Source: an uncultured Gammaproteobacteria bacterium (GTDB lineage Bacteria > Patescibacteriota > Patescibacteriia > CAYHRN01). From it: a stretch of 33,210 bases of DNA. The notes beneath the pieces are model-generated. The model was given only the letters and a program-made list of their open reading frames with translations. It was not told the origin of the DNA and ran no database searches. The stretch is taken from the NCBI GenBank assembly GCA_964359155.1, contig CAYHRN010000002.1, positions 1 to 33,210 on the forward strand. Reading direction: 5' to 3'. The position numbers were made by a program, and so were the translations under genes. Shown one piece after another: positions 1-33,210 of the stretch; position 1 is the first letter of the stretch, and each line of letters starts with the position of its first letter.

Positions 1-277
1 TTTTCATATGGGACACTCTAACACAGAGTGTCCTAATTCATTACGGAATGAACGTTTGAGGTGCAGTACCTATTTGTTGTAAGTATATTACAACATTTAA
101 TCCATGTCAATAGCCTATAAGCTATATTAAATGCTTGCTTAAGTAGCCATATACGTTTTTTACGTATCTTTTTGTAATTCTTAATTTACATATATAGCAG
201 TTTGTGTGAGAATGTGTATGTAGTGGTTGTTGGAAACAAGTTTGACTTTGTTCTTTTACATTACAGGGGAGGAAGCT

Positions 278-859
278 GTGGAGACAAAAGAAGTGCTGCG
301 CCTTGTAAAGCTCTTCTTCGTGAAGGAAAACTGGGGCAACGGAAATCGCTATGTTGTCAACGACACGCTGGCGCTGAAGTTCAGTGGCGACCAAGAAGCG
401 GCACGCTTTCTCGTGAAGGTAATCCGCTTCTGGTGCGACAAGCAAACGATCTTCTGTTTTGATTACAGAACAAAGCAGGAAAATGGAAAGTCGGTCCTTC
501 TGCTGGAGAATGAGTGGACTTTTTCTCTCTGCTCCAATGGGGAGATGGGAACTTCCTGCTGGCGGACAAGCAGAATCCTTGACAAAATCTTCGAGGACGG
601 CAAGAAGTTCGTGGCGCTGCCCTTTGTTGGGTACTCGTCTACGCTCCGATTCAACCTCCTGAAGGACTTCGCGAAGAACGGACGCGACAGCGTCCTGCGT
701 CTGATAAAAAAGGAGGCGCGGAAACGGGAGGTTGCAGACAGGAAGGCTGAAAGGAAGATTGCGATCCAGGAGGCCACAGGGCAATATTGCGAGGCTGCGC
801 GTGCTTTGCGAAAGTGCGGCGTAAACCCGGCCCGCATCAAAGTCTCGGATTCCCAGTAG
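278..859 (+). CDS. hypothetical protein, orphan, GC3-rich (about 193 aa from GTG 278; ORF track calls TTG 227)
   Basis: Most coherent frame in 227-859. GTG at 278 lies 5 nt after GGGGAGGA. Codons are mostly G/C-ending (CTG, AAG, TTC, GTC), unlike neighbours. Lys/Arg/Glu-rich helical C-terminus; no motif recognised. Confidence 0.55.
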   Translation: METKEVLRLVKLFFVKENWGNGNRYVVNDTLALKFSGDQEAARFLVKVIRFWCDKQTIFCFDYRTKQENGKSVLLLENEWTFSLCSNGEMGTSCWRTSRILDKIFEDGKKFVALPFVGYSSTLRFNLLKDFAKNGRDSVLRLIKKEARKREVADRKAERKIAIQEATGQYCEAARALRKCGVNPARIKVSDSQ

Positions 860-968
860 CGCCCCGACCCGAGCACGTCGCAGAACCGCTCCTCCCAGAT
901 TCGCAGCTCCGCCACGTCGGAGTTGAAAAAATAACGGTCTTCAGTTGCCTACCTTCAAACGGCAACGC

Positions 969-1001
969 AAAAGGACAGATGCACTTCATCTGTCCTTTTT
1001 T
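969..1001. terminator. bidirectional intrinsic terminator between convergent ORF 278-859 and hicA
   Basis: AAAAGGACAGATG-cactt-CATCTGTCCTTTTTT: 9-bp stem (973-981 / 987-995) flanked by A4 and T6. It lies 7 nt from the hicA stop. Confidence 0.75.
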
Positions 1002-1007
1002 CTTGTG

Positions 1008-1220
1008 CTAACTAGAAAGAAAACTTTTTACATCTTCAGGGGTAATATCGGCGTCTTTGAGTATGCCGTGCAAAAGCCCCTTACCGAAAGTTTTTCCTCC
1101 ATGTACCGGCACCGAGACAATATGCCCATCACGTGCACGCCAGAAAATATGATGGCTTCCTTCAATACGATCAAGCACAAAACCTGCGTGCTGCAGCACG
1201 CGAAATAACTTAACGTGCAT
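1008..1220 (-). CDS. hicA: type II toxin-antitoxin system HicA-family mRNA interferase toxin
   Basis: 70 aa with ..FVLDRIEGSHHIF..VSVPVHGGKTFGKGLLHGILKDA.., the typical HicA/YcfA signature. Start overlaps the hicB stop. Confidence 0.85.
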   Translation of the reverse strand: MHVKLFRVLQHAGFVLDRIEGSHHIFWRARDGHIVSVPVHGGKTFGKGLLHGILKDADITPEDVKSFLSS

Positions 1221-9225: not shown

Positions 9226-9702
9226 ATGCAAATTTACCTAGGTGCGGATCATGCAGGGTTTTCGTTGAAACAAGAATTGCAAGAATGGCTGGTGAGCGAA
9301 GGCCATGACGTGCAAGATATGGGGGCGTATAAGCTGAACCCGGATGATGATTACCCCGATTTTGCGGCCGCCGTGGGGCACGTGGTGGCGCATAACCCAA
9401 AGTCGTTAGGGGTGTTGCTCTGTGGGAGTGCTGAAGGGGTGTGCATTGCGGCGAATAAAATTAAAGGCATACGCGCCGTAACCCCAGGGAGTATTCAATC
9501 TGCTAGGCTTACGCGAAGTCATGACAATGCCAATGTAGTGTGTTTAGCAGGAGGTAAAACCAAAACGCCGGTGCCCGAAGTTGCCATGTCGCCCGAATGG
9601 GCGCGTGAGATTTTAAAAGTGTGGCTTGCAACACCCTTTAGTAATGAAGCGCGGCATGTGCGAAGGCTCAAAAAAATAGAGCAATTGGAAAATAATGCAT
9701 GA
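9226..9702 (+). CDS. rpiB: ribose-5-phosphate isomerase B (RpiB/LacA/LacB family)
   Basis: MQIYLGADHAGFSLK.. and ..GVLLCGSAEGVCIAANKIKGIRA.. signatures. Confidence 0.92.
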   Translation: MQIYLGADHAGFSLKQELQEWLVSEGHDVQDMGAYKLNPDDDYPDFAAAVGHVVAHNPKSLGVLLCGSAEGVCIAANKIKGIRAVTPGSIQSARLTRSHDNANVVCLAGGKTKTPVPEVAMSPEWAREILKVWLATPFSNEARHVRRLKKIEQLENNA

Positions 9703-10772
9703 ACTACACCTTTTACACGAACTCCGTGGCTGCGTTTGACGGGATGCAAGAAGCACTACGTGTCGCCATAACGTCTATTTACTGGGAGTCCTATATTTTT
9801 ATAGACGATGTGGCAACGCATCGTTTTTTGGATCTCCTGAAAGAAAAGGCCACACAGGGAGTAAGTGTTAAAATAGTATTGGATAGTGTGGGCAGCTTTC
9901 AGTTTTTTAACGCTATGCAGCGTGACCTTGCTTCATGCGGCATAGAGCTCTTATTTTTTAACCCACTACTTCCATGGCGTAATCCATATCGTTTACGTCG
10001 CTGGTGGTTTTTGCGTACGCATAGAAAATTATTAATTATTGATGGACGCGTGGGGTTTATTGGCGGCGTCAATATTGGTAAGCATTACGCAGGGTGGCAC
10101 GATCTTCATTTGCGCCTTGAGGGCGTTTTTGTGCGGCGTTTTGTAGTATCATTCGCACGGTCCTACCGGCTTTCTGGTGGTCGTGATCGCCTCCTTTTGC
10201 CATCTCGCAACAATGTCGACCCTGCTTCGTTCATGAATATACTGTTTCTGGATCACTCCCCCTTCGGGGGTCGTTCATATCTTCGGCGTGTGTATAAAGC
10301 ACATTGCATGGCAGCCACGCGTCGTATTGTTATAGTGACGCCCTATTTTGTGCCGCACCGCTGGCTTATGCGTGCCCTACAACGCGCAATTCGTCGTGGC
10401 GTTGCGGTGGAGGTCATTATGCCCAAAACTACCGATAGCCGCCTTTTGAATTTGGCAAATGCAGTGTGTAGGGAATTGGGTGCGCGGCGCGGCATTATGT
10501 TTTTTTTATTTCCCGAGATGATTCACGCGAAAGCGCTTTTAGTGGATGATCGGGAAGGCATCGTGGGGAGCAATAATATCGACGCACTCAGTTTTGATTA
10601 TAATTTAGAGGCGAGTGTGAGTTTTTCAGACGAGCATATGGTAGGCGACCTACGCACTATTATTGAAACGTGGAAGCAGGCGTCTACGCGCTATTATCCC
10701 CATGCAAAAAAGAAATCATGGTATGAGCGGGCACTAATTTTGCTGGTGAAGCTTCTCCAACCCATTTTGTAG
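9699..10772 (+). CDS. phospholipase D-family protein (cardiolipin synthase-like, no N-terminal TM helices)
   Basis: Two HKD motifs: HRKLLIIDGRVGFIGGVNIG and IHAKALLVDDREGIVGSNNID. Confidence 0.85.
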   Translation: MNYTFYTNSVAAFDGMQEALRVAITSIYWESYIFIDDVATHRFLDLLKEKATQGVSVKIVLDSVGSFQFFNAMQRDLASCGIELLFFNPLLPWRNPYRLRRWWFLRTHRKLLIIDGRVGFIGGVNIGKHYAGWHDLHLRLEGVFVRRFVVSFARSYRLSGGRDRLLLPSRNNVDPASFMNILFLDHSPFGGRSYLRRVYKAHCMAATRRIVIVTPYFVPHRWLMRALQRAIRRGVAVEVIMPKTTDSRLLNLANAVCRELGARRGIMFFLFPEMIHAKALLVDDREGIVGSNNIDALSFDYNLEASVSFSDEHMVGDLRTIIETWKQASTRYYPHAKKKSWYERALILLVKLLQPIL

Positions 10773-10831: not shown

Positions 10832-11470
10832 ATGCCTCACATCATTCCCGCTATTTTAGCCCACACTGAAGAAGAATTTCAGAGTAAGCTCGAAATTATC
10901 AGAAAGCTCAATACATTTTTTCAAATTGATGTAGTGGATGGCGAGTTTGCTTCGCCTAAGACCTTTGTTGAATCCCCTTCTCGCCTCTCCCTTGAGGGGG
11001 TTCCCGTATTTGAGGTCGATCTTATGGCGAACGATCCTTTGCAAGTAGTTGACTCTTGGATGCAGGCCGGTGCTGCACGGTTTATATTTCATGCAGAGGC
11101 CAACGACGATCCCGCGCTCGTCATAAAAGCAGTGAAGCAGTATAATGGTAAGGAGGTCGGCATGAGCTTGAACCCTGAAACGCCGTGGGACGCTCTTGAG
11201 CCTTATCTTGCCGCGCTGGATGTGGTGTTGTTCCTTGGTGTGCATCCAGGCAAAAGCGGGCAGAACTTTATTCCCGAAGTGCTGGAAAAAATTCGTACCT
11301 TTCACGCTGCCTACCCTGCTATGCCTATTGAAGTAGATGGAGGGGTGACGCTTGAGAATGCTAAGGATTTAGTTAAAGCAGGTGTCAGTAGATTTGCGGT
11401 AACAAGTGCGATTTTTCATACTCCAGGCCCTGTGTACGCATTTCAACGTCTTCAAAGGTCATTAGAGTAA
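10832..11470 (+). CDS. rpe: ribulose-phosphate 3-epimerase-like (ribulose-phosphate-binding barrel)
   Basis: ..IIPAIL..FQIDVVDGEFA..FHAEA..MSLNPETP..VLFLGVHPGKSGQNF..IEVDGGV.. follows the RPE motif order. Preceded by TGCTATATAAT (extended -10-like). Confidence 0.7.
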   Translation: MPHIIPAILAHTEEEFQSKLEIIRKLNTFFQIDVVDGEFASPKTFVESPSRLSLEGVPVFEVDLMANDPLQVVDSWMQAGAARFIFHAEANDDPALVIKAVKQYNGKEVGMSLNPETPWDALEPYLAALDVVLFLGVHPGKSGQNFIPEVLEKIRTFHAAYPAMPIEVDGGVTLENAKDLVKAGVSRFAVTSAIFHTPGPVYAFQRLQRSLE

Positions 11471-11492
11471 ATAACATTCATCAAATAAATAT

Positions 11493-11876
11493 ATGTCGTT
11501 AGGGCTTATTATAGGGTTTATCCCCGTCGGTATTGTTGTGGGGATCGTGTGGTTTTTTTATAAGTTAGTTGCATGGAAGAACAAAAAAGATGTGTCATGG
11601 GATTTGGTGTTATCGTATACGGCACTTATTATTTCATTTGCTCCTTTATTGTTTATCATCTCTACGATCATTACGGATGGGTTTATTGGTCCTCACGGAT
11701 CAGGATTAATTCTTGTTGTTTCTGGGTTTCCATTTACTCAAGCCATTTTTGATATTATTCTTTTGGGCACGATGTTGAAGAAACAGCCACGCCCGCGTTT
11801 AGCAGTATTCCTGAGCATCATTGCATTATTGGCACTCATTCTGTCGTCTATTTTGTTTTTTACTACTGAAGCGTAG
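11493..11876 (+). CDS. hypothetical integral membrane protein (about 4 TM helices)
   Basis: 127 aa, strongly hydrophobic segments, no motif recognised. Confidence 0.6.
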   Translation: MSLGLIIGFIPVGIVVGIVWFFYKLVAWKNKKDVSWDLVLSYTALIISFAPLLFIISTIITDGFIGPHGSGLILVVSGFPFTQAIFDIILLGTMLKKQPRPRLAVFLSIIALLALILSSILFFTTEA

Positions 11877-11895
11877 TAGCCGAGGTAAGTGTCTT

Positions 11896-12756
11896 ATGCC
11901 CCATATTCACGACAGTAAAGTAAAAGAGCTCGAGGAGATCGCCGTGAAGGTCCGCGAGGATATTATCACTATGCTGCTTGCAGCAGGGAGTGGGCATAGT
12001 GCCGGCCCTTTGGGCATGGCAGATATTTTTGTGGCATTGTACTTTCATATACTTCATCACGACCCCAAGAACCCCCATTGGCCTGAGCGCGATCGCCTGA
12101 TTCTTTCTAATGGCCATATTTGCCCCGTGCGGTATGCCACTATGGCGCATGCAGGGTATTTTTCGCGGGAGGAGCTGAAAACTCTGCGTAAATTTGGGAG
12201 CCGTTTGCAAGGGCATCCGGAGCGTGAAAAACTTCCAGGAGTAGAAACTACCAGTGGCCCACTAGGCAGCGGGTTGGGGCAAGCTGCAGGTATGGCGTAT
12301 GTGGCAAGGCTCGATAATAAACCATGGCGCACGTATTGTGCGATGTCGGACGCTGAACAAGCATGTGGCGTTACCTATGAGGCTATGCTCTTTGCCGGAG
12401 CGAAAAAGTTAAGCAACCTCACTGCAATCATTGATCGCAATAATATTCAAATTGATGGGTTTACTGAGGACATTATGCCCATTGACCCGTTGATAGAAAA
12501 ATATCAAGCATGCAATTGGCACGTGCTGGAGGTAAGTGGGCATAGCATGCAGCAAATTGTGGAGGCAGTGGAAGAAGCCAAAACTATATTTGAAAAGCCC
12601 ACCGTGATTATTGCCCATACCATTCCCGGTCGTGGGGTGAGTTTTATGGAGAAGCGTTTTGAATGGCATGGCATGCCGCCAAACCGTGAACAGGCGGCGC
12701 AAGCGATGAAAGAGCTAAGAACACTCGAAGGTAAAATTATCTCGGAGCATGAATAG
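11896..12756 (+). CDS. tkt: transketolase, N-terminal (TPP-binding) subunit
   Basis: ..SGHSAGPLGMADIF..SNGH..GPLGSGLGQAAGMA.. motifs. ATG 11896 (MPHIHDSKVKEL..) is preferred over the track start 11821, which overlaps the upstream membrane gene. Confidence 0.92.
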   Translation: MPHIHDSKVKELEEIAVKVREDIITMLLAAGSGHSAGPLGMADIFVALYFHILHHDPKNPHWPERDRLILSNGHICPVRYATMAHAGYFSREELKTLRKFGSRLQGHPEREKLPGVETTSGPLGSGLGQAAGMAYVARLDNKPWRTYCAMSDAEQACGVTYEAMLFAGAKKLSNLTAIIDRNNIQIDGFTEDIMPIDPLIEKYQACNWHVLEVSGHSMQQIVEAVEEAKTIFEKPTVIIAHTIPGRGVSFMEKRFEWHGMPPNREQAAQAMKELRTLEGKIISEHE

Positions 12757-22949: not shown

Positions 22950-24287
22950 TTGGTATATGCGGCTGCATTTATGAAGGGGTATACGCCCAATACCTTGGTC
23001 TTTGATACTAAAACTATTTTTAAGGCATACCCTGAAGACTATGCGCCCGAAAACTATGATGGTAAAGAGCATGGGCCCCTTCAGCTCAAGAGTGCGCTCG
23101 CAGGATCGCTGAATATTCCTGCCGTGAAACTCCTGTACATTACTGGGGTTGATCGTGTGCTCGACCTTGCCGAAGCGCTCGGCTACACCACCCTGAAAGA
23201 TCGTTCACGATTTGGGTTAAGCTTGGTATTAGGAGGCGCCGAGGTAAAGCTGCTGGAACATGCAGCAGCCTTTCGTTCATTTGCCGAGCATGGTATGTAT
23301 CGTGCGCCCAGTGCTATTGTGCAAATTCAAGATGCAGAAGGTAGTGTGGTGTATGAGCGCCGCAATAATCAGGCGCGTAGTGTGGTTGTCCCCGAGGTAG
23401 CACATACGATCACCAGTATTCTTTCCAATAATGCCCTGCGTACCTTTATTTTTGGCAGTAATAGTTTTCTCCAACTGCCCGATCGCCCTGCGGCCGTGAA
23501 AACCGGTACCACCAATGATTTTCATGATGCCTGGGCTTTGGGTGCAGTGCCCAGCCTCACTGCCGGGGTATGGGTGGGGAACAATGATAATAGCCCTATG
23601 AAAAAAGGGGCGGATGGCAGTAAACTTGCGGCACCTATTTGGCAAAGTTTTATGAAAAAGGCTTTGGCAGGTACACCGGTTCAGGAATTTGTGCCCCCCA
23701 AACCAAGCAGTGCGAATAAACCTATTTTAAAAGGTGAAGGCTTGGGTGAAGTGACGGTAATTCTCGATAAGGCATCGGGTAAACGTGCGACCAGCCTTAC
23801 GCCAGATTCGTTTAAAATAGAAAAGAAATTCAGAGTGCTGCACGATATTTTGTATTTTGTAAACAAAGACGACCCCACGGGCCCTGCACCTTTGCACCCC
23901 GAAACTGATCCGCAATACGCAGGGTTTGAGGCGGGTGTTGCCGCATGGGCACAGAAGCAAGGCTTACAAAATGAAGAGCCCCCCATAGGTGAAGATGATG
24001 TGCATGTACTAGACAATATTCCTCGCGTAACTATCGTAGCTCCTGTTACGGGGAGTCGCATTACAACATCTACTCCTTTGCAGACACAGGCAAGTGCCCC
24101 CCGGGGTGTTGCGCGCATGGAAGTGGCATTGAACGATATCGTTGTTGCACGCACACAAGGCTCTTCGCTTATTGCAACTCTTGATGTAAGCTCAGTCCCT
24201 CCTGGGTTTCACACCCTTACTGCCTATGCGTATGATGATATTGACAATAAAGGCACTGCGTCGGTGACCATCAATGTGACGCGATGA
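22950..24287 (+). CDS. class A PBP, C-terminal fragment (transpeptidase SxN and KTGT motifs plus Ig-like C-terminal domain)
   Basis: ..GSLNIPAV.. and ..VKTGTTND.. motifs. The frame stays open upstream to 22866 and there encodes RQPGSSFKP. Confidence 0.85.
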   Translation: MVYAAAFMKGYTPNTLVFDTKTIFKAYPEDYAPENYDGKEHGPLQLKSALAGSLNIPAVKLLYITGVDRVLDLAEALGYTTLKDRSRFGLSLVLGGAEVKLLEHAAAFRSFAEHGMYRAPSAIVQIQDAEGSVVYERRNNQARSVVVPEVAHTITSILSNNALRTFIFGSNSFLQLPDRPAAVKTGTTNDFHDAWALGAVPSLTAGVWVGNNDNSPMKKGADGSKLAAPIWQSFMKKALAGTPVQEFVPPKPSSANKPILKGEGLGEVTVILDKASGKRATSLTPDSFKIEKKFRVLHDILYFVNKDDPTGPAPLHPETDPQYAGFEAGVAAWAQKQGLQNEEPPIGEDDVHVLDNIPRVTIVAPVTGSRITTSTPLQTQASAPRGVARMEVALNDIVVARTQGSSLIATLDVSSVPPGFHTLTAYAYDDIDNKGTASVTINVTR

Positions 24288-24290
24288 GTG

Positions 24291-25463
24291 CTATTTGGTG
24301 TCCTTTAGTGTGAGCGACGCGGTAAGGCCAGTCAGCATTATGATTCCCAGTACAATAAAGAGTGTGGGAATCGTAGTAAATTGTAAAAGGAGGGTAGCCA
24401 AGAGCGGCGCGACTACATAGGCTAAAGGCCCAGTATCGCGAAAAAAACTGGTCAGGTGTACATCGCGGAAATCAATTTGTTTAAAAAAGTACGTATCGCG
24501 CATAATTTCTATTAATGCTGCGCCTACCCGGGTCATAAATAAGGCCAGCATCCAATGCCACATTACGGGTTGCACGAGAAATGCCATACTTATGGATGCG
24601 CCTGCGATTACCACAATTCCTACGGTTAGGAGTTCTTTTTCGCCAAGCCACTTATCAGCAATGCGGCCGGCTGGGTATTGGATAAGCACAAAGGGTAAGA
24701 GCATGACCGAGAGAATATTGCCAATTTCATAGCTTTGAAACCCCAGATTATGTAAATGTAAGGTGGCATAAATAATCATCCACGCATAAAAAAAGTTAAG
24801 CAAAAATGAAATAAAAAAAATACGCGAAAGTGCGGCAGAGCGAAAAATAGTTTTCAGTATCGTGCGTAATGGGGGTTGATGATTCGTAGGAAGATGACGG
24901 AATTTAAATCTAAATGCGCAGAGGCATAATAAAGGGAGTAGCACCAAGGCTGCGCTTGCAAACAGGGCTCTAAATCCCCAGCTTGTAACCAAGATACCGG
25001 CAACTGAAGGTGCTACCACAAAGGCAATATTAATCATGGTATAGGCTTTGCCCCTAATGCTGCCGGTGAGCGCATCTTTAGAAAAACTTTCCAACATTAC
25101 GTCCAGCGTTACCCCAATTAAGGTAAGGCATACTTCATAAAGCGCAAGGGCAATAAGTTGGGCATAGGGTGTGCCAAAGGCAAGCACTCCTAGTACCACC
25201 AAGGTGGTGCTTAAGAGTGCAAGAAGATTATTACGTACGCCATAGCGTTTTAAAAAGCGTGGGAATATAAATACTGATACCATGGCTACCGCATAGGTAA
25301 TGGCAAAGAAGATGCCTACATTGGCCTCGCCAATAATTTCTTGCAGCAAGGTTGACTGGAAATATAAGGTAAGGGCCGTGGCTACTGCCACGGCGGTAAG
25401 TGCCTTGTAGGTAATACTTAAATGTTTGGTATCAAGATGTTCAAGGTGATGGGAAAGAGCCAT
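24291..25463 (-). CDS. MFS transporter
   Basis: 390 aa with about 12 hydrophobic helices and an MFS-like loop ..RFLKRYGVRN.. Confidence 0.85.
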   Translation of the reverse strand: MALSHHLEHLDTKHLSITYKALTAVAVATALTLYFQSTLLQEIIGEANVGIFFAITYAVAMVSVFIFPRFLKRYGVRNNLLALLSTTLVVLGVLAFGTPYAQLIALALYEVCLTLIGVTLDVMLESFSKDALTGSIRGKAYTMINIAFVVAPSVAGILVTSWGFRALFASAALVLLPLLCLCAFRFKFRHLPTNHQPPLRTILKTIFRSAALSRIFFISFLLNFFYAWMIIYATLHLHNLGFQSYEIGNILSVMLLPFVLIQYPAGRIADKWLGEKELLTVGIVVIAGASISMAFLVQPVMWHWMLALFMTRVGAALIEIMRDTYFFKQIDFRDVHLTSFFRDTGPLAYVVAPLLATLLLQFTTIPTLFIVLGIIMLTGLTASLTLKDTK

Positions 25464-25472
25464 ACGAAATAG

Positions 25473-25493
25473 CCACTAGCGACTAGCCACTAG
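25473..25493. repeat. three tandem heptamers CCACTAG-CGACTAG-CCACTAG between the thrS stop and the MFS start
   Basis: Read directly. On the coding (minus) strand it is CTAGTGG-CTAGTCG-CTAGTGG, ending 9 nt before the MFS ATG. Confidence 0.6.
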
Positions 25494-25501
25494 TTGTTAG
25501 A

Positions 25502-27352
25502 TTATTTTTTTGATTCAATCTCTTTCAGGATTCGTTCGGTAAATTGTTTGCGGGTCATGGGTATAGTTGTTTCTTTACCACGCAACCGCACCGCAAGGCG
25601 CGTGCTTTTTGCTTCTTTGTCGCCCATAACCAGCATGTAGGGAATTTTTTGCTGTACAGCTTTACGGATTTTGTAGCCCACGGTTTCATTACTCAAGTCT
25701 GCATGCACTCTAATCCCCTGCTCTTTTAGTTCTTCCGCCAGTTTTTTAACTACCTTTTCATGTTTTTCCCCTACCGGAATAATACCTACTTGCACGGGCG
25801 CAAGCCATGTGGGAAAGGCGCCCGCGTAGTGTTCGATGAGAAAGCCAATAAGGCGTTCGTGGGTAGAAAGTGGTGCGCGGTGAATACACAAAGGAGTTTT
25901 CTCTGTGCCGTCTTTGTCTTTGTAGGTGAGATTAAACCGCGCAGGCACGGCAAAGTCTACTTGGTTCGTGGCAAGGGCAAACTCGCGCCCTATCGTGCTC
26001 CAAATCAGTACGTCAATCTTGGGGCCATAAAAGGCTGCTTCATTGGGCACTTCCACAAATGGCACTTTGGTTTTTATCAAAATAGTACGCACCATAGCTT
26101 CTGTTTTCTCCCATAGCGGCTTATTGTCGATGTATTTTTTACCCAGTCCTTCGGCACTATGCGTGCTAAGGCGGATGACATATTTTTTAATGCCAAAAAT
26201 TTTAAAGTATGCATGGTACAATTTAATCACGGCTAAAAATTCTTTTTCAAACTGTTCTTCGGTGCAATAAATATGCGCATCATTCATTTGCAAGCTGCGC
26301 ACGCGCATCAGGCCAAATAATTCCCCGCTTTTTTCGTAACGGTAGCAGGTGCCGTATTCTGCTAGGCGTAGTGGTAAGTCGCGGTAACTTCTGGGTTCTG
26401 CCGCATAAATTTGATGATGATGTGGGCAGTTCATGGCCTTCAGGTAATACGTAACTTTTTGCCCATTGTCTTCGTTCATCACCATGGGAGGGAACATGCT
26501 TTCGGCATAATAGGGCAAGTGGCCCGAAGTTTTATACATGTCTTCTTTTGCCACATGCGGGGTGCGTACGCGCACATACCCTGTGGCCGCTTCCATGTCT
26601 TTCCCAAGTTTTTCAATTTCTTCAATTAGTATTGCGCCATTGGGGAGCCAAAGGGGCAACCCAGGTCCCACCAAGTCGGAAAACGCAAACAGTTTCAGTT
26701 CTTTGCCAAGCTTGCGGTGGTCGCGGCGCTCAGCTTCTTTTAACAGTTCCAAGTGCGCATCCAGTTCTTCTTGGGTATGAAATGCAAGACCGTAAATGCG
26801 AGTGAGCATTTTGTTTTTCTCGCTCCCCCGCCAGTAGGCGCCCGCAAGGTGGGTAAGTTTAAATGCACCTAATTCGTTGGTGTTTTTAATATGAGGTCCG
26901 CGGCAGAGGTCTATAAATTTGCCGGTTTCATAGATGGAAGCCATGCCATTGCTCACTGAATCTTCGGAGGGTAAATCCCCCTTTTCTTCCCCCTTTGTAA
27001 AAGGGGGAACGAGGGGGATTTGTGTGGTTCCTCGCTCCTTCAGGTCGTTGAGGAGTTCAACTTTAAATTGTTGCCCGCGAGATTGAAAAAATGCAATTGC
27101 CTCATCGAGCGGCATTTCTTTGCGCACATAGGGAGTAGTACGTTTTGCCAAGTTGCGCATTTTTTGTTCAATCCGCACTAAATCTTGTGGCGTAATAGGT
27201 TGAGTAAACTGAAAGTCATAAAAAAATCCATGTTCAATCACGGGGCCAATGCCCAGCTTTACGCCGGGGTACAGCTCTTCCACGGCAGCGGCCATAAGGT
27301 GAGCAGTGGAATGGCGAAGGGTTTCGAGGTCGGGGTTTTGGTTGTTGCTCAT
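25502..27352 (-). CDS. thrS: threonine--tRNA ligase (no N-terminal TGS domain; carries an in-frame palindromic-element insert)
   Basis: HSTAHLMAAAV editing-domain motif, ..DLCRGPH.., class II motifs ..RVRSLQMNDAHIY.. and ..FYGPKID.., and an anticodon-binding domain. ATG 27352 (MSNNQNPDLETLRHSTAH..) is preferred over track start 27433. Confidence 0.95.
   Translation of the reverse strand: MSNNQNPDLETLRHSTAHLMAAAVEELYPGVKLGIGPVIEHGFFYDFQFTQPITPQDLVRIEQKMRNLAKRTTPYVRKEMPLDEAIAFFQSRGQQFKVELLNDLKERGTTQIPLVPPFTKGEEKGDLPSEDSVSNGMASIYETGKFIDLCRGPHIKNTNELGAFKLTHLAGAYWRGSEKNKMLTRIYGLAFHTQEELDAHLELLKEAERRDHRKLGKELKLFAFSDLVGPGLPLWLPNGAILIEEIEKLGKDMEAATGYVRVRTPHVAKEDMYKTSGHLPYYAESMFPPMVMNEDNGQKVTYYLKAMNCPHHHQIYAAEPRSYRDLPLRLAEYGTCYRYEKSGELFGLMRVRSLQMNDAHIYCTEEQFEKEFLAVIKLYHAYFKIFGIKKYVIRLSTHSAEGLGKKYIDNKPLWEKTEAMVRTILIKTKVPFVEVPNEAAFYGPKIDVLIWSTIGREFALATNQVDFAVPARFNLTYKDKDGTEKTPLCIHRAPLSTHERLIGFLIEHYAGAFPTWLAPVQVGIIPVGEKHEKVVKKLAEELKEQGIRVHADLSNETVGYKIRKAVQQKIPYMLVMGDKEAKSTRLAVRLRGKETTIPMTRKQFTERILKEIESKK
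26973..27021. repeat. nested-hairpin palindromic element inside the thrS coding sequence
   Basis: AAATCCCCC-ttttc-TTCCCCCTTT-gta-AAAGGGGGAA-cga-GGGGGATTT. Shares CCCTTTGTAAAAGGG and GGGATTTGTG with the copy at 29445-29493. Confidence 0.7.
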
Positions 27353-27447
27353 AAGGATTACAGTATTTAAAAAATGTAGCCGCAAGCTTGAGCTTGCGAT
27401 CAATGTGGATTTTAGTATATCACGCCGCACCATGAAACGTACAATGG

Positions 27448-27476
27448 TTGACCTTTCAAGTAAAGTTTGCTATTAT
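27448..27476 (+). promoter_or_regulatory. sigma70-type promoter with extended -10 for small ORF 27522-27665
   Basis: TTGACC (27448-27453), 17 nt spacer, TGC-TATTAT (27471-27476). Confidence 0.55.
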
Positions 27477-27521
27477 ATATTTGCCTAAAACCCCATGGAA
27501 AAATACAGAAAGGAGGCTTCC

Positions 27522-27665
27522 ATGGACAGTTTTTGGAACCGCCACCCGCGCCTCACGTGGGTTCTGCTGGTAGGTGAGGCTCTCGCGTTCGCGAGTATCC
27601 TCGCCTACGTGGGGTGGTTGGGCGTTCAACCACCGCCCCCTCCGCCACCCGCTCCCCCCACCTGA
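27522..27665 (+). CDS. small single-pass membrane peptide with polyproline C-terminus (47 aa; 56 aa if ATG 27495 is used)
   Basis: Hand-translated: MDSFWNRHPRLTWVLLVGEALAFASILAYVGWLGVQPPPPPPPAPPT*. AAAGGAGG lies 5 nt upstream. Has its own promoter and terminator, and G/C-ending codons. Confidence 0.5.
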   Translation: MDSFWNRHPRLTWVLLVGEALAFASILAYVGWLGVQPPPPPPPAPPT

Positions 27666-27702
27666 GTGGTGGTCGAGGAAGGTCCGGAGTATCCGGACCA
27701 GA

Positions 27703-27738
27703 AAGGCTCGTGCCACTAATGCCGGGCCTTCTTTTTTT
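27703..27738 (+). terminator. intrinsic terminator of the small-ORF cassette (abuts the stop of the convergent 353-aa protein gene)
   Basis: AAGGCTCG / CGGGCCTT 8-bp stem (one G-U) with a 12-nt loop, then C plus T7 (27732-27738). Preceded by a second hairpin GGTCCGGA-gta-TCCGGACC (27681-27699). Confidence 0.7.
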
Positions 27739-27746
27739 ATTTTGCA

Positions 27747-28808
27747 TTAACATCCACCACAGTTTCCTTTGCCTAAGGCAACTTCTTGTGAAGCACAGGA
27801 AGAAGAAAAGGAAATAAAATACTTCCATTGGCCAGGCGCAATATTGACTGATCGCAAGGCAATGGGCTTGAAGTTCTTACACTGTATCCATGAGGGGGCT
27901 TTATTGGGTTCAGGACGAATTTTATTTTTAAGGCTTTGTCCTTGGTCTGAGTAGGGAGCGCAATAGTTCTGTTGATTAGTGCAGCTTATTTTGGGTGTGC
28001 AAGCTTGGTAGAGTTTAGATGCTATGTCAGGCCATACTTTGTCGGCAAAGCATCGTTCGCATGCACGTGCTGCTACCTCAGGAGGCAGAATAACTATGGC
28101 AGTTTCGTTTTTCATGCCACCACCCTGAGCAAGGGTGCGGTAGGGTACCGTGACACTCACTCCTTCTTTTATTGGTGTGTTGCTTTGAATAGTCTTTCGG
28201 TCTGATAATTTATTATCTTCCATGATGCTTCTCAGTTTTTGAGGGATGCTGGTGAGCGGAAGCTCGAGCTCTGCGTCTATTTGATTTGATGTGGGGGGAA
28301 GTGCACCAAGATCCCAGGTACTTTTTTGGCATATGCTTTGCGTGGCATCATGAGGCGCGGAAGTTGTTTCTCCTGGCCAACGCAGTGGTGTGCCTGGTGC
28401 GAGGGATTCAAGAGGATCGCCAAATCCCCACATAGACCCTCTGCGTGCCTCTCTTGGATCAAAAAGTCCATTGTCTTGGAAAAAGAGGAGTGGTTTATCG
28501 GCAGCACTTTTGGTGTTCACGGTACCTTTAATGGTATTGCCACGTACTGGCGCTGGTATATTTTTAACTTTAAAGCCTTCCAGTGCTTGAAAGTAGGTGA
28601 GGCCATTGTGTTTTTTAAACGAAAGTCCTCGCGAAGAAAAGGTAGTCCCCTCACGGATCTTGTCAGCATTTTGCAACGTAAACGTAAAAGGTACTCCACA
28701 TGGTGGTTTTTGATCGAGCCAGTAGTCGGTAATAGCCTGGGCATGGAGGGGTGTTGTGGGCAGTATCAGGGCCATAATGGTAAGAGCAAAAAAGAAGTTG
28801 CGCATCAT
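27747..28808 (-). CDS. secreted hypothetical protein, Cys-rich C-terminal region
   Basis: Signal peptide MMRNFFFALTIMALILPTTPLHAQA. 11 Cys, 9 of them in the last about 105 residues. Ends GKGNCGGC. No motif recognised. Confidence 0.75.
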   Translation of the reverse strand: MMRNFFFALTIMALILPTTPLHAQAITDYWLDQKPPCGVPFTFTLQNADKIREGTTFSSRGLSFKKHNGLTYFQALEGFKVKNIPAPVRGNTIKGTVNTKSAADKPLLFFQDNGLFDPREARRGSMWGFGDPLESLAPGTPLRWPGETTSAPHDATQSICQKSTWDLGALPPTSNQIDAELELPLTSIPQKLRSIMEDNKLSDRKTIQSNTPIKEGVSVTVPYRTLAQGGGMKNETAIVILPPEVAARACERCFADKVWPDIASKLYQACTPKISCTNQQNYCAPYSDQGQSLKNKIRPEPNKAPSWIQCKNFKPIALRSVNIAPGQWKYFISFSSSCASQEVALGKGNCGGC

Positions 28809-28829
28809 ATGTAGTATTTTTCTTTTATA

Positions 28830-29429
28830 CTACTCTTTTTGAATGTGCACGTCTATGGTGAAGCTCAGAGCGGGGTTCGCGCCCAGCCAGGTATATTTGT
28901 TATTCACTTGGTATATAGGGCGAAAGGCAAGGGTATAGGTGCCAGGGATGCTGGGAGCAACCACGGAAAATGTAAATGTGCCGTGCGCAGTGGGCTCTAC
29001 GCTTTCTTCTTTAAGTGCGGCCACGCGTTTTTTGCCTGGCCAACTTTTGTGATACCAGGGGCTAGAATCTGCTTCGTCGGGCGCAAGAATTTGTAAAAAT
29101 GTAGTGGTGTTTGTCCATGTGGCAGTGCCGGTATTTTGAAATGTAGCAGAAAGGGTAAGAGTTTTTCCTGGGGCAGCAGAGATAAGTTTGTGGCTTTGGG
29201 AAATAAGTTTTTGAGACCAGGTAAAGGGTTCACCCTCACCCCCGCCTACGGCGGGGCCTCTCCCCTCAAGGGAGAGGCGGGTTTTTTCAGAGGGTAAGGG
29301 AGAGGGGTATGATTCAATTTCAAAATCATTCGCATGATTTCCTTGATATATCCTGAATAACCAAATCCCCTGCCCCACCAGGGCAAGGGTCAATACGCCA
29401 ATAACTATGGAGATGTATTCTTTTTTCAT
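28830..29429 (-). CDS. N-terminally membrane-anchored protein with beta-rich (Ig-like, possibly NBR1-type) ectodomain
   Basis: TM helix ISIVIGVLTLALVGQGIWLF, then a repeat-encoded linker. The beta-strand-like segment ..GKTLTLSATFQNTGTATW..GTFTFSVVAPSIPGTYTLAFRP.. is present. The domain call is tentative. Confidence 0.7.
   Translation of the reverse strand: MKKEYISIVIGVLTLALVGQGIWLFRIYQGNHANDFEIESYPSPLPSEKTRLSLEGRGPAVGGGEGEPFTWSQKLISQSHKLISAAPGKTLTLSATFQNTGTATWTNTTTFLQILAPDEADSSPWYHKSWPGKKRVAALKEESVEPTAHGTFTFSVVAPSIPGTYTLAFRPIYQVNNKYTWLGANPALSFTIDVHIQKE
29240..29287. repeat. tandem GC-rich hairpins embedded in frame in the anchored-protein gene
   Basis: CCCCGCC-tac-GGCGGGG (29240-29256) and GCCTCTCCC-ctcaa-GGGAGAGGC (29256-29278), followed by GGG plus T6 on the plus (antisense) strand. 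Translated on the minus strand as ..KTRLSLEGRGPAVGGGEGE.. Confidence 0.65.
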
Positions 29430-29444
29430 AGGCCGCGAATAGTA

Positions 29445-29493
29445 TACCTCTCATTCTCCCTTTGTAAAAGGGAGAAAAGAAGAGGGATTTGTG
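29445..29493. repeat. intergenic copy of the nested-hairpin palindromic element (5' leader region of the anchored-protein gene)
   Basis: TCTCCCTTT-gta-AAAGGGAGA (29455-29475) and GAGGGATTTGTG (29482-29493). Strings of 15 nt and 10 nt are identical to the thrS copy. Confidence 0.65.
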
Positions 29494-29500
29494 GCGTGCC

Positions 29501-29529
29501 TTGCTTTAATAATAAATTTATGCTATTAT
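29501..29529 (+). promoter_or_regulatory. sigma70-type promoter with extended -10 for ORF 29589-29966
   Basis: TTGCTT (29501-29506), 17 nt spacer, TGC-TATTAT (29524-29529). The string TGCTATTATgTATTTG nearly matches the promoter at 27468-27483. Confidence 0.5.
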
Positions 29530-29588
29530 GTATTTGGACCAAGATCGCGGATCTTGGCTTTGTTGGGCCTTTTCCCAGGGAGGGAGCC

Positions 29589-29966
29589 ATGTCGAACCAG
29601 CAGGCTGTCAGGCAGTTAACGATCAACTGCCTGATCATGCTCGTTTTTTTGGCCATGCTGGGGGTCGGGTGGCTTCACTACCGAGCAGCGGAGCTCGGTG
29701 TGCCGCTCATCCCCCGCCGACCCGTCGACCAGGTTGAGCTCGGTAGTGGGGCGCCCAGGCCCGAGGCGCCGCCCGAGAAAATCCTGGATTTCTCGGATAT
29801 CGGTCTGGCCGAGGCGGTCGCTAAGGGAGGCGCCGAGGGTGCTCGCGCGGCGGCCGAAGCCGTCACCAAGGCCGCGGAAGTGGTCGGCGACGTGGCAGCT
29901 GAGGGGGTCGGCAAGATCCCCGAAGCCATGGAGGAGGCGGAAAAAAAGAAAAAGCCGCCCAAGTAG
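29589..29966 (+). CDS. GC-rich small membrane protein: one TM helix, Pro-rich linker, Ala/Glu/Gly-rich tail (125 aa)
   Basis: ATG 29589 follows AGGGAGGGA by 3 nt. Sequence MSNQQAVRQLTINCLIMLVFLAMLGVGWLHY..PRRPVDQ..APRPEAPPE..AEAVAKGGAEGARAAAEAVTKAAEVV..EKKKKPPK. Strongly G/C-ending codons. The track start GTG 29496 would run through the promoter. Confidence 0.6.
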   Translation: MSNQQAVRQLTINCLIMLVFLAMLGVGWLHYRAAELGVPLIPRRPVDQVELGSGAPRPEAPPEKILDFSDIGLAEAVAKGGAEGARAAAEAVTKAAEVVGDVAAEGVGKIPEAMEEAEKKKKPPK

Positions 29967-29999
29967 GGTGGCAATTCAGGGCCTGGAGGGGGCCCGCAG

Positions 30000-30036
30000 G
30001 GAGGGGTAGACTACCAGTGCGTCGCCCCTCCTTTTT
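30000..30036 (+). terminator. intrinsic terminator of ORF 29589-29966, overlapping the stop of the convergent 711-aa protein gene
   Basis: GGAGGGG (30000-30006) pairs with CCCCTCC (30025-30031), followed by T5 (30032-30036). Confidence 0.55.
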
Positions 30037-32171
30037 CATTTCTTTGCCACACCTTTGAGTACTTTTTCTTGTTGTTCTTTAAGACGTTTCAATATTTCTA
30101 TGAAAAATTCTTTCAGGGGGTCAATAGTACCCATTTCTTTAATATAGTTTTTCTTTAAACCTATAAGACGCTCTTCTTCTTGCCGCATAAAGCGCTGCAT
30201 ACGCACGCCCAGGCGTTTGACCATGCGGATTTCTTTAATCTTAAGAAGAGTCTCTACTAACGCATCTAGTGCACGCGGTATTTGATATTTTAATGCCGTG
30301 GGGACGACTGAATCCAGTATCCCTGCAACTACCATGCGTATGTCATTTTCTGTGTCTTGAAGGGTGTCTTTGATAAATTTCGGCAATTTAATGGTACAGT
30401 CTTTTAAATACATGGCTTTCATATTTGCCAAAAGGCGGGTAAAGGCAAGTACAATCATCTCATTTTTAATACCAATGAATGGGGGTCCCCCAAGCACTTT
30501 TGCTATTTCTGGTATTTCTGGTGGCATAGGAGGAAGTCCGCCATTACCATCGGGGTCATTTTTGTGATCATCAAGCCAGCTCCTCGCAGCATAAGGGTCT
30601 TTAGCGCGCTTACGCAGTTCTCTAAAAGCTTCAGAGCCAATGAATGGCATGCCTACTACCACACCGCCTTTTCGATATTTTGTGGAGTAATCGCTGGCAG
30701 CTTCTAATAGTTGTTCAAGATCACCATTGTCTTTAAAATAAAGCTTTTTAAGTAATGAGGCAAGGCCTTTTTTGACGCGCGCATAGATTTCGTGTTTCAT
30801 GCGCAACTTCAGATGATCTTTTGCTTGCTCGCTACACTGCAAGTATTGTAATGCATCTTGTTCAAGGCTGCCTTTCTTGGGGTCAAACATGTCTTGAGGT
30901 TTTTTGGGTGCAAACGGGTTGATAAAGAGCGGTGGGGTTTTGGGAGGTGGTTGTGGCGCGGTGGTGTCTTTCGAATCTTCTTCCTCGGGGAACGAGGGAT
31001 CATTCTTTAATATACGATCAATATCTTCTTGAAGAGAGTCAAGATCTTTTTGAAAATCTGCCTTGGTGCTATGCAGCAGAGCATGCAAGTCTTTCAGGGC
31101 ATCAAGGAGGCCTTGCTTATTATCATTTTTTGCGGCAGCCAAAAGAGTGTCGAGTAATGCAAAGAGTTGGGTAATGCCACGATCGGCAAGTGCTGCTTTT
31201 AGAATACCTTCATGAATATCAATCTGGGGTGCGTTGCGGTCGTACTTTTTAGGATTATAAGAAATAGCATGTTCTAAAAGCCATGAAGCAGGCAAAGAAC
31301 AATTGGCAGGCCACACAGAAATAGCGCTCGCCAGGCCTTGCAAGATACGCAAGGTTTGTATGGGAACGGCAATACCACGTGCATATCCTCGGCCGTCGTC
31401 TTGCTTTTTTAATTCCTTTACCGCTTCAGCCAAGGTGGGGCGTGGCGTAGGTACGGTAAGGCCTTGTGCTGCGTACGCTTTTTCAATTGTTTCATCCCAG
31501 AGCGGCCAGATGGCGTCCAAGAATTTACGGCCGATCAATGCCTTTATGTCTTGATAGCTTGCTTTGGGATTAAAACTACAATCGGCAATTTCTTGCACGA
31601 GCGTGTCTTGAAACTGTTTGAGCATCTGCGTTTCGTCCAAATTAGCATCAATGGCAGGTGGCGCACCAGTACCTGGTAAATCTGGTTTTAATAGTACCCC
31701 TGGTGCCGGGGCTATGCCTGGAGTGTGTACAAACGCAAAGAGTGGGGTAAGTGCGGTATTGGCAACAAATTGCTCTTTACTCACCGTGCTGGTGCCTTGC
31801 AACAAGGCCTGCACGATTGCATCAAAACGTAAGCGCGCAACAAGCGTGGCAAGGTTATTGGCCACGCCTTGTGCCATGGTAATATCTTCTTTGCTTGAGG
31901 GTTGTACCCGCAGTAATGTTTGTCCCAGTATTTGGTTCTTACGGGTGGCACTTAGGCGATACAAGGTGGGAGTAGTTACCACAGGAGTATTAAAATATTT
32001 TTCCCAGGTATTGTCGAGGGGCCTTGCCTTACAGCCCACGACACCACTTGGTACTTCTTGCCCGCCTAAATTTTGTGCAGGAAAACTTGGGCGGGCTTGT
32101 AGGGCGGCCATTGCAGGCGTAAGTGGGCCAAGCAGCAGGCTTAAGATAATAAAAGGAGTGAGAAGTTGCAT
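30036..32171 (-). CDS. secreted hypothetical protein, 711 aa, mostly helical with a central Pro-rich linker
   Basis: Signal peptide MQLLTPFIILSLLLGPLTPAMAA. Linker ..TTAPQPPPKTPPLFINPFAPKKP... No motif recognised. Starts 7 nt after the upstream gene's stop. Confidence 0.8.
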   Translation of the reverse strand: MQLLTPFIILSLLLGPLTPAMAALQARPSFPAQNLGGQEVPSGVVGCKARPLDNTWEKYFNTPVVTTPTLYRLSATRKNQILGQTLLRVQPSSKEDITMAQGVANNLATLVARLRFDAIVQALLQGTSTVSKEQFVANTALTPLFAFVHTPGIAPAPGVLLKPDLPGTGAPPAIDANLDETQMLKQFQDTLVQEIADCSFNPKASYQDIKALIGRKFLDAIWPLWDETIEKAYAAQGLTVPTPRPTLAEAVKELKKQDDGRGYARGIAVPIQTLRILQGLASAISVWPANCSLPASWLLEHAISYNPKKYDRNAPQIDIHEGILKAALADRGITQLFALLDTLLAAAKNDNKQGLLDALKDLHALLHSTKADFQKDLDSLQEDIDRILKNDPSFPEEEDSKDTTAPQPPPKTPPLFINPFAPKKPQDMFDPKKGSLEQDALQYLQCSEQAKDHLKLRMKHEIYARVKKGLASLLKKLYFKDNGDLEQLLEAASDYSTKYRKGGVVVGMPFIGSEAFRELRKRAKDPYAARSWLDDHKNDPDGNGGLPPMPPEIPEIAKVLGGPPFIGIKNEMIVLAFTRLLANMKAMYLKDCTIKLPKFIKDTLQDTENDIRMVVAGILDSVVPTALKYQIPRALDALVETLLKIKEIRMVKRLGVRMQRFMRQEEERLIGLKKNYIKEMGTIDPLKEFFIEILKRLKEQQEKVLKGVAKK

Positions 32172-32178
32172 GCAAGGA

Positions 32179-33210
32179 TTATAATCCTAGAGCCGAGGGT
32201 ACGGCAAAGAATTTACCCCAGGAAAGATAGTACAACATGAGTTTGAGTTTACCTGTGAAGCCGGCGTAGTACGAGGCAATGGCCTCTGGGGACACGGTGA
32301 GTAACTGCTCTTGGCTAAGAAGTTCCAGTAAGAGTTCGTAGGAAACGCTTTGTTGGCTAAGAGGCTTATCAGTAGTGAGAACTAAAGGTTGGGCTTTCGA
32401 CACTGTCGATGGTTGTGCGGTAAGGGTCGCGGCAACGGATTCACCTGTGGGGGATGTGATGGTAGGCGTTGTTTGCGCAAGTTCTTGCTGCGACATACCT
32501 GCAAAGTTAAGGGTTACGGTTCTCGCAGTGCTTACGGTGCCTGAAGCACCCCCTACGGTAACCACAGATCCTGGGGGAGCATTAGGTACCGTGAATGATA
32601 CGGAAGAGCCACCGCTTGAGGTGCCGCCAGAAGGCGTGGTGGCGGGCAAGGGAAGGCTGGAGGTGATTTCTGGCAGATCATTCAAACGCTCAGTATCAGT
32701 AGCTTTCGTTGCTTGTTGTGGATTTGTGGCAACCGCAATACTGTCTTGTAGTTCTGCTTGTGTAAGGGTGCGCGTGTGTGGCCCGTCTGCTGTGTCAGCA
32801 GTAAAAGTAACTGATATAATGTCGTTGAGCTCTTTAAATATTTCATCCCATGAGGTGAAGGTAAAGCGTGTGCCGTCTTTTTTTATGCCCGTGCCCGTCA
32901 ATGATGCAGTGCTTACCGCAACCCCATTGAAGAGTAATTCAGGCATACATGCTCTTGTTTGCGTGCCTTCACTGCTAGTTCCCGTACCCCCAGGGCTCGA
33001 GAATGTGTACATGCCATTTTGCCCAGGTCCGGCGTAGGAGAAGAGTGCTCCACCGGATAACGCTCCACCAGTATCTTGTGCTGATACATTTGGTACTGGG
33101 GTCAGCTCCAAAGTAATTTCTGATCTGGTAAAACTGTTAAATTGAGCCGCTACGGGGGTTAATGGTAAAAGTATAAAGCTTGCAATGGCACTAAATATGA
33201 AAAAACGCAT
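32179..33210 (-). CDS. secreted hypothetical protein, Thr/Ser/Gly-rich, hydrophobic C-terminus (start codon at the window edge)
   Basis: Signal peptide MRFFIFSAIASFILLPLTPVAAQ. Low-complexity T/S/G tracts. C-terminal ..KLKLMLYYLSWGKFFAVPSALGL. Its upstream region lies outside the window. Confidence 0.7.
   Translation of the reverse strand: MRFFIFSAIASFILLPLTPVAAQFNSFTRSEITLELTPVPNVSAQDTGGALSGGALFSYAGPGQNGMYTFSSPGGTGTSSEGTQTRACMPELLFNGVAVSTASLTGTGIKKDGTRFTFTSWDEIFKELNDIISVTFTADTADGPHTRTLTQAELQDSIAVATNPQQATKATDTERLNDLPEITSSLPLPATTPSGGTSSGGSSVSFTVPNAPPGSVVTVGGASGTVSTARTVTLNFAGMSQQELAQTTPTITSPTGESVAATLTAQPSTVSKAQPLVLTTDKPLSQQSVSYELLLELLSQEQLLTVSPEAIASYYAGFTGKLKLMLYYLSWGKFFAVPSALGL

Follow-up and report, generated by a model that had tools for sequence, protein, structure and literature searches.

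The stretch of DNA analysed here (the window, 33,210 nt) comprises positions 1 to 33,210 of contig CAYHRN010000002.1 from assembly GCA_964359155.1 and is part of a chromosome of the candidate phyla radiation (CPR)/Patescibacteria. Its genes include dnaA, dnaN, holA, yidC, a bactofilin gene, penicillin-binding protein genes, a major facilitator superfamily (MFS) transporter gene and thrS. Our subject is a small GC-rich cassette at 27448–27738. It lies on the plus strand, with the start of thrS (27352, minus strand) on one side and the stop of a gene for a 353-aa protein (27747, minus strand) on the other; its neighbours are thrS, the MFS transporter gene and genes for orphan secreted proteins. 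An initial annotation had described a promoter, a hairpin at the start codon, a gene for a 47-aa peptide, two downstream GC-rich hairpins and a run of seven T at this place, all on the strand opposite to the neighbouring genes. Direct reading, together with promoter and terminator scans, found each of these sequence elements in place and the orientation as described. A contig 99.97% identical to the window (L003) comes from Hainich groundwater, well H52, and the locus is carried by the European Nucleotide Archive (ENA) assemblies ERZ1292621, ERZ2470813 and ERZ1300416.

The cassette begins with a σ70-type promoter (27448–27476, plus strand), made of a −35 element TTGACC (27448–27453), a 17-nt spacer and an extended −10 element TGC-TATTAT (27468–27476, with the TG at 27468–27469). 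It matches 10 of 12 consensus positions in addition to the TG and was the top plus-strand site of the promoter scan in 26900–30300. Transcription would be expected to start near 27483. A Shine–Dalgarno (SD) sequence, AAGGAGG, is present at 27510–27516, 5 nt 5′ of the ATG at 27522. The 5′ untranslated region can fold into a hairpin (27493–27525) with an 8-bp stem, in which CCATGGAA (27493–27500) pairs with TTCCATGG (27518–27525), and a 17-nt loop. This hairpin has a ΔG of −11.4 kcal mol−1 and a z-score of −1.16, and 26 of 200 shuffled sequences were equally stable, so that its stability is not significant; it is retained in the minimum free energy fold of the whole transcript. The initial annotation had called it start-sequestering and the ribosome-binding site occluded. 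This part does not hold. Because the loop contains the SD sequence, the site is not occluded; the AUG alone is paired, in the 3′ arm, and the stem does not rise above shuffles.

The open reading frame (ORF) runs from 27522 to 27665 on the plus strand, ends in TGA and encodes 47 residues (MDSFWNRHPRLTWVLLVGEALAFASILAYVGWLGVQPPPPPPPAPPT). Three independent public assemblies of this population list it among their gene calls, and of the six frames the annotated one scores best under a codon model for which the remaining GC-rich cassettes (described below) served as training set. An alternative in-frame ATG at 27495 has no SD sequence and would give a 56-aa product. AlphaFold2, run on the single sequence, predicts one long helix for residues 9–35 (codons at 27546–27626) with a mean pLDDT of 90.6, followed by an extended proline tail. 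The Kyte–Doolittle maximum over 19 residues is 1.84, and we take the predicted helix to be a transmembrane segment. R7, H8, and R10 are located on its N-terminal side. Seven consecutive proline codons (27630–27650) are followed by A-P-P-T and the stop codon, giving the peptide tail PPPPPPPAPPT; the segments DSFWNR and LTWVLLVGEALAFASILAYVGWLGVQPPPPPPPAPPT also belong to the peptide. Polyproline stretches stall ribosomes that lack elongation factor P (EF-P), and by analogy the synthesis of the heptaproline should be EF-P-dependent.

To judge how much of this could arise by chance, we used 5000 dinucleotide shuffles of 27483–27745. An ATG-initiated ORF of at least 47 aa occurred in 9% of them, since GC-rich DNA is poor in stop codons; the length of the ORF is thus unremarkable, and the cassette region has long open frames in five of six. 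In 0.1% of the shuffles there was an ORF of 30 aa or more whose hydrophobic 19-mer matched the observed one in strength, and 0.56% had a GGAGG-led ORF of at least 30 aa. The combination of GGAGG with a transmembrane-grade segment (Kyte–Doolittle 19-mer value of at least 1.6) was not seen in any of the 5000. With its SD sequence and transmembrane-grade frame, the 47-aa ORF is non-random. The small single-helix ORF of the initial annotation is supported by the shuffles and by AlphaFold2.

Downstream of the stop codon, the 3′ untranslated region contains a perfect, GC-rich 8-bp hairpin, GGTCCGGA-GTA-TCCGGACC (27681–27699, plus strand). It is followed by an intrinsic terminator (27704–27738) that consists of a 9-bp stem with one bulge (27704–27729), TC and seven T residues (27732–27738). 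The 5′ arm of the terminator starts 39 nt past the stop codon. Read on the minus strand, the same hairpin has only UUUCU after the stem. The folded ORF also contains a long imperfect hairpin, GTAGGTGAGG..CTCGCG-TT-CGCGAG..CCTCGCCTAC (27570–27608, plus strand), in the region that encodes the helix. The fold of the ORF alone has a z-score of −2.3. For the whole inferred transcript the value is −5.6 on the plus strand versus −3.4 on the minus strand, and this strong structure is due to six consecutive hairpins, one of them within the helix-coding region. Rfam gave no match for the cassette at gathering thresholds; up to an E-value of 10 there were weak, terminator-type matches to ctRNA and small RNA families (15–18 bits, where 45–80 are needed), on the plus strand only.

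The cassette clearly differs from the flanking genes in base composition, as would be expected of a unit that came in from elsewhere in the manner of a phage moron (see below). The GC content is 63% in 27500–27699 versus 47% in the window. The ORF itself has a GC content of 0.66, versus 0.44–0.50, and a third-position GC content (GC3) of 0.71, versus 0.39–0.50 in 28 ordinary genes. The initial annotation had described a stand-alone unit, visibly richer in GC than its surroundings, and both statements are correct; it overlooked that the window holds two more cassettes of this kind and that all three are set apart from the native genes by their SD sequences.

The sister cassette (29501–30036, plus strand) is approximately 2 kb away. 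It has a weak −35 element, TTGCTT (29501–29506), a 17-nt spacer, an extended −10 element TGC-TATTAT (29521–29529), a 5′ hairpin (29539–29557), GGAGG (29579–29583), a 5-nt spacer and an ATG at 29589. The product of the ORF (29589–29966) is 125 aa long and has a single hydrophobic helix at its N-terminus and a tail rich in Ala, Glu and Gly that ends in KKKKPPK. GC-rich hairpins and a terminator (29999–30036) follow the ORF. The GC contents at the three codon positions are 0.71, 0.44, and 0.78, which is a clear coding periodicity, and the transcript folds with a z-score of −4.5. The two promoters share a 16-nt block, TGCTATTATATATTTG, that spans the −10 element and the discriminator: 15 of 16 positions of 27468–27483 (plus strand) are common to 29521–29536 (family D5). 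This block has four matches with at most three mismatches, where 0.77 are expected. We considered whether the 47- and 125-aa products are paralogues and rejected this, as BLASTP gave an E-value of 0.3 that involved Pro-rich segments only. The third cassette (185–1009, plus strand) has a promoter-like site at 185–213, GGAGG at 268–272, a 5-nt spacer and a GTG start at 278; its ORF (278–859) encodes 193 aa with a GC3 of 0.67, and a terminator follows at 969–1009 with a 13-bp stem (969–999).

With GC3 values of 0.71, 0.78, and 0.67, these three are the only high-GC3 ORFs of the window. GGAGG with a 5-nt spacer precedes all three and none of the 28 ordinary genes (Fisher's exact test, p≈2×10−4). 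The ordinary genes, including dnaA, dnaN, yidC, and thrS, have no GGAGG upstream; a few show weak 4-mer SD-like matches. The CPR relatives of the locus, found through threonyl-tRNA synthetase (ThrRS), have SD-poor starts as well. A subgroup of the Parcubacteria has been reported to have no anti-SD motif (PMC9297842). No 3′ end of a 16S rRNA gene is present in the window or in any of the fetched loci.

We propose that the cassette is a monocistronic gene that functions autonomously and encodes an orphan bitopic membrane peptide of 47 aa, and that it is one of a few units of alien composition in a CPR chromosome with native genes that carry no SD sequences. We put the probability of this reading at about one half. 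The cassette itself is real, and from its signals its expression is plausible. RNA polymerase would start at the extended −10 promoter, near 27483, and the 39-nt leader would present AAGGAGG in the loop of the weak hairpin, so that translation could begin at the ATG at 27522. The product would be a single helix (residues 9–35) with R7, H8, and R10 in the cytoplasm and the PPPPPPPAPPT tail outside; this N-in/C-out topology is suggested by the positive-inside rule. Transcription would end at the intrinsic terminator (27704–27738), just before the convergent gene for the 353-aa protein. The transcript most likely measures about 250 nt and forms a self-contained unit, as judged from these signals. 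In its architecture the cassette resembles a phage "moron", and the high GC3, the SD sequence, the orientation opposite to the neighbours and the private promoter and terminator suggest a laterally acquired unit and not a native gene. Morons are independent transcription units that spread horizontally (PMC3594210).

Several results weigh against this proposal. The high GC content is confined to the transcribed body, and the AT-rich promoter and leader resemble the host, an awkward fit with a wholesale import. The strongly structured transcript would also suit a non-coding RNA. If the lineage is among those without an anti-SD, the SD sequence could be a non-functional relic and the ORF untranslated. 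No flanking direct or inverted repeats, as signatures of a miniature inverted-repeat element or another insertion, were found at the cassette, and no integrase or phage genes nearby; the neighbours have no match in PHROGs. Finally, the 47-aa peptide, the 125-aa sister and the 353-aa protein returned only themselves from searches of 5.8 billion protein clusters, an exhaustive search of 1.84 billion representatives, and phage, plasmid and viral-contig collections. The 47-aa peptide stands alone among about 15 billion proteins, and because these collections hold no homologue, a donor, conservation or a ratio of nonsynonymous to synonymous substitutions cannot be given. Two hits of the exhaustive search (P0003 and P0004) were rejected: both are long tandem-repeat proteins, spuriously matched through Pro-rich or hydrophobic repeats. 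The DNA of the cassette likewise had no match in the phage, viral-contig and plasmid collections.

The syntenic copies in relatives for which the initial annotation suggested a search were not found; the homologue searches returned a single locus with no additional copies. The best ThrRS relatives among GTDB representatives are 64–66% identical (Microgenomates- or Staskawiczbacteria-type metagenome-assembled genomes), and the best one in the JGI metagenomes is 55% identical over the N-terminal half. With nothing closer in those metagenomes, the lineage of the window is very thinly sampled. None of the ThrRS-anchored loci has a syntenic peptide or 353-aa gene, and the MFS gene is present in one of them only (L016). 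No present/absent polymorphism or empty site that would show transfer was found, and there is no close relative. Two ENA contigs (L001 and L002, k-mer coverage 0.85) align with 23909–33203 of the window at 94.6% identity overall, with the cassette 100% identical. We rejected this as a sign of selection. The contigs differ from the window by hundreds of 1–7-nt deletions, identical in both assemblies, that fragment thrS and the MFS gene and are clustered in blocks separated by error-free ones, to which both GC-rich cassettes belong. The deletions look like gap filling with error-prone reads, or another assembly or long-read artefact, and the contigs are therefore unsuitable for evolutionary inference. 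Similarly, a 46-nt frameshifting deletion of the sister ORF in L003 corresponds to a stretch of N and is a scaffold gap.

Four other explanations were weighed. The cassette may be a non-functional relic, in which foreign GC-rich DNA carrying a donor's SD sequence, ORF and terminator came to lie in an intergenic gap without useful translation or selection. The composition and the SD sequence, both alien to the host, would fit, as would the orphan status with no conservation data, the SD-poor lineage and the lack of an anti-SD in some Parcubacteria. Against it, the promoter, SD sequence, ATG, ORF and terminator are all intact and well spaced. The host-type AT-rich −10 block, shared by two cassettes, suggests recruitment for expression, and comparable intact cassettes occur in other CPR genomes. 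We regard a relic as doubtful, though with an appreciable minority chance. An incidental ORF within a structured non-coding RNA of approximately 250 nt is unlikely. The RNA could act as an antisense insulator against read-through from the convergent 353-aa gene or as a C-rich regulatory small RNA, in view of the CCUCC within the tract CCCCCUCCGCC. The island is rich in GC, has a promoter and a terminator of its own and forms six consecutive hairpins, more stably folded on the plus strand (z-score −5.6) than on the minus strand (−3.4), all of which agrees with this; so do the five open frames of six, the 9% of shuffles with an ORF of at least 47 aa, and the host genes without SD sequences, given which GGAGG need not mean translation. 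On the other hand, nothing in Rfam matches up to an E-value of 10 besides terminator-type noise, GGAGG lies exactly 5 nt before the start in three of three GC-rich cassettes, a transmembrane-grade hydrophobic frame is rare by chance (0.1%), the ORF frame is the top-scoring one of six, and the sister cassette shows coding periodicity (0.71/0.44/0.78). Without related sequences, a covariation test is not possible.

The initial annotation had seen a resemblance to type I toxin loci, in which translation of a hydrophobic, membrane-damaging toxin is restrained by the fold of its mRNA together with a small RNA, either antisense or divergent. The peptide is small (47 aa, under about 60 aa) and hydrophobic with a single helix at 9–35, the mRNA folds with a z-score of −5.6, and the AUG is paired in a stem. 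A promoter-like site on the minus strand (27501–27472) overlaps the plus-strand −10 element, and a hairpin with six U (27399–27374) could bound a divergent RNA of approximately 90 nt that overlaps the first approximately 18 nt of the transcript. This divergent element is more simply explained as the promoter and leader of thrS. The SD sequence is exposed in a loop of a hairpin no better than shuffles, and in the promoter scan no site resembling a promoter lay antisense to either the ORF or the 3′ untranslated region. No toxin family matched in Pfam, NCBIfam, PHROGs or the PADLOC-type collection, and there are neither additional copies nor homologues. The 125-aa sister, with the same layout, is too large for a typical toxin, and type I toxins are not known to carry a polyproline tail at the C-terminus. 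With no family match, no sequestered ribosome-binding site and no antitoxin RNA identified, the toxin resemblance is not supported beyond the generic likeness of a small hydrophobic peptide with a structured mRNA, and we consider a toxin locus improbable. Still more remote, and very improbable in our view, is a regulatory leader or arrest peptide, in which stalling at PPPPPPP would control the terminator or downstream or antisense expression. The heptaproline does lie near the stop codon with hairpins after it, and polyproline stalling is well established. Against this, no plus-strand gene follows, the next genes being on the minus strand; the 5′ arm of the terminator, 39 nt after the stop, is beyond the reach of a ribosome stalled at 27630–27650; and a transmembrane helix would be unnecessary.

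Returning to the autonomous membrane-peptide gene, we compared it with known systems. Like phage morons and laterally acquired ORFan cassettes, it has a σ70-type promoter and a factor-independent terminator of its own, a base composition unlike that of its neighbours, and a small orphan product of the often membrane-associated kind; it lies between unrelated genes, and there are several such units in the region. Unlike morons, it has no recognizable prophage around it, no PHROG match among its neighbours, no phage or viral match, and no known donor or sibling copies, its promoter is AT-rich and host-like, and the host is an SD-poor CPR bacterium. With type I toxins (Hok, Fst, TisB, Ldr, ZorO, TxpA) it shares a length below 60 aa, one hydrophobic helix, a structured mRNA, a strong terminator and a stand-alone position. 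It differs from them in that it is single-copy, its SD sequence is not sequestered, neither an antitoxin RNA nor a family match was identified, and the peptide has a proline-rich C-terminal tail in place of the usual short charged one. Small membrane-protein regulators such as MgrB, AcrZ, MgtS, KdpF, and CydX are conserved within lineages and are usually encoded beside a partner or co-regulated with it. The cassette is similar to these in the size of its product, the single transmembrane helix predicted for it and its monocistronic layout, and it too is missed by standard ORF cut-offs, but it has no conservation or evident partner and lies between thrS and an orphan secreted-protein gene. In Flavobacteria, rpsU is a rare SD-led gene in an SD-poor genome, and the anti-SD is normally sequestered. 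The window is comparable in having a few genes with strong SD sequences in a genome that otherwise lacks them. The SD-led ORFs here, unlike rpsU, are GC3-rich orphans and not ribosomal components.

A scan of 1.6 Mb of fetched loci for GGAGG-led ORFs with a GC content at least 0.12 above that of the locus revealed look-alikes in other CPR genomes. In four loci (L006, L020, L082, and L012), GC-rich ORFs have AAAGGAGG or GGGAGG 5–8 nt before the ATG. A consensus TTGACA promoter precedes those in L006, L020, and L082, and a terminator follows those in L012 and L082; for the look-alikes in L006 and L020, the neighbours are on the other strand. L006 (source OZ246416.1) has look-alikes at its positions 11190–11960 and 9334–9738 (minus strand), with the TTGACA promoter, AAAGGAGG, 5 nt and the ATG of a membrane protein of 77 aa, after which another small one is encoded; the cassette is antisense between two plus-strand genes. 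In L020 (7930–8300, minus strand), an 87-aa ORF with a GC3 of 0.86 lies directly downstream of thrS, on the opposite strand. L082 (1045–1690, plus strand) encodes a 165-aa membrane-anchored, Cys-rich protein, and L012 (10170–10680, plus strand) has a 131-aa ORF with a clear terminator. The GC-rich ORFs of the different loci show no homology to each other. In a crude gene-level test, 5 of 19 GC3-high ORFs (GC3 at least 0.20 above the locus median) were SD-led, compared with 39 of 613 others (p=0.007). The ORF caller was crude and this is no rigorous census; because several islands were mis-framed, the association is probably underestimated. As a side observation, several look-alikes encode single-helix membrane proteins or run antisense to their neighbours.

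It is possible, though we hold it to be unlikely, that the cassette exemplifies a recurrent, undescribed class of structured, GC3-rich mini-genes in CPR/Patescibacteria that are led by GGAGG with a 5-nt spacer. Each member of such a class would have a private promoter and terminator, and many would encode single-helix membrane proteins and run antisense to their neighbours, in genomes whose native genes have no SD sequences. The members could stem from a steady inflow from SD-using, GC-rich donors, such as the hosts of these episymbionts or their mobile elements. Alternatively, they could form a translationally distinct regulon that is read by a subset or state of the ribosomes.

By itself, the cassette is one more unannotated gene for a small membrane protein in an uncultivated bacterium, and it illustrates how genes below 60 aa escape ORF tracks. 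The wider interest is in the clean contrast that a single 33-kb stretch shows between GC3-rich cassettes that are SD-led and native genes without SD sequences. If this contrast were to hold genome-wide and across the CPR, genes that entered these reduced genomes recently, or that form a special class in translation, could be recognized by a simple sequence signature. The contrast would also help to find out whether Parcubacteria poor in anti-SD can still use SD sequences.

A number of smaller features were noted around the cassettes. Upstream of the thrS ATG (27352), the minus strand carries an extended −10-like element, TGATATACT, that precedes an 8-bp hairpin (27399–27380), after which comes CUACAUUUUUU (the hairpin and this element lie within 27374–27412). 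The minus-strand promoter-like site at 27501–27472, which overlaps the −10 element of the cassette, points toward thrS. From their layout, these elements could be a 5′ stabilizer of thrS, an attenuator or a divergent small RNA. A T-box or comparable attenuator was considered and rejected, as Rfam showed no T-box match on either strand of 27300–27800 and the fold of the minus-strand leader has a z-score of −0.01. Within the cassette, the motif GCCACCCGC occurs twice (27541–27555 and 27644–27657), in different reading frames. It is complementary, over 12–13 of 14–15 nt, to CGGGTGGC in the transcript of the sister cassette (29659–29673); this may be due to chance in GC-rich sequence.

Beyond the cassette, the minus strand of 27747–33210 is occupied by a run of orphan genes for products of 353, 199, 711, and more than 343 aa. 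An N-terminal signal-like sequence is present in the 353-aa product. The only Pfam match in this run is that of the 199-aa protein, a sub-threshold one to the Ig-like domain N_BRCA1_IG. The third cassette adjoins dnaN, which is on the opposite strand, and its 193-aa ORF is an orphan. The 711-aa gene is convergent with the sister cassette, and its stop codon is overlapped by the U-run of the sister terminator.

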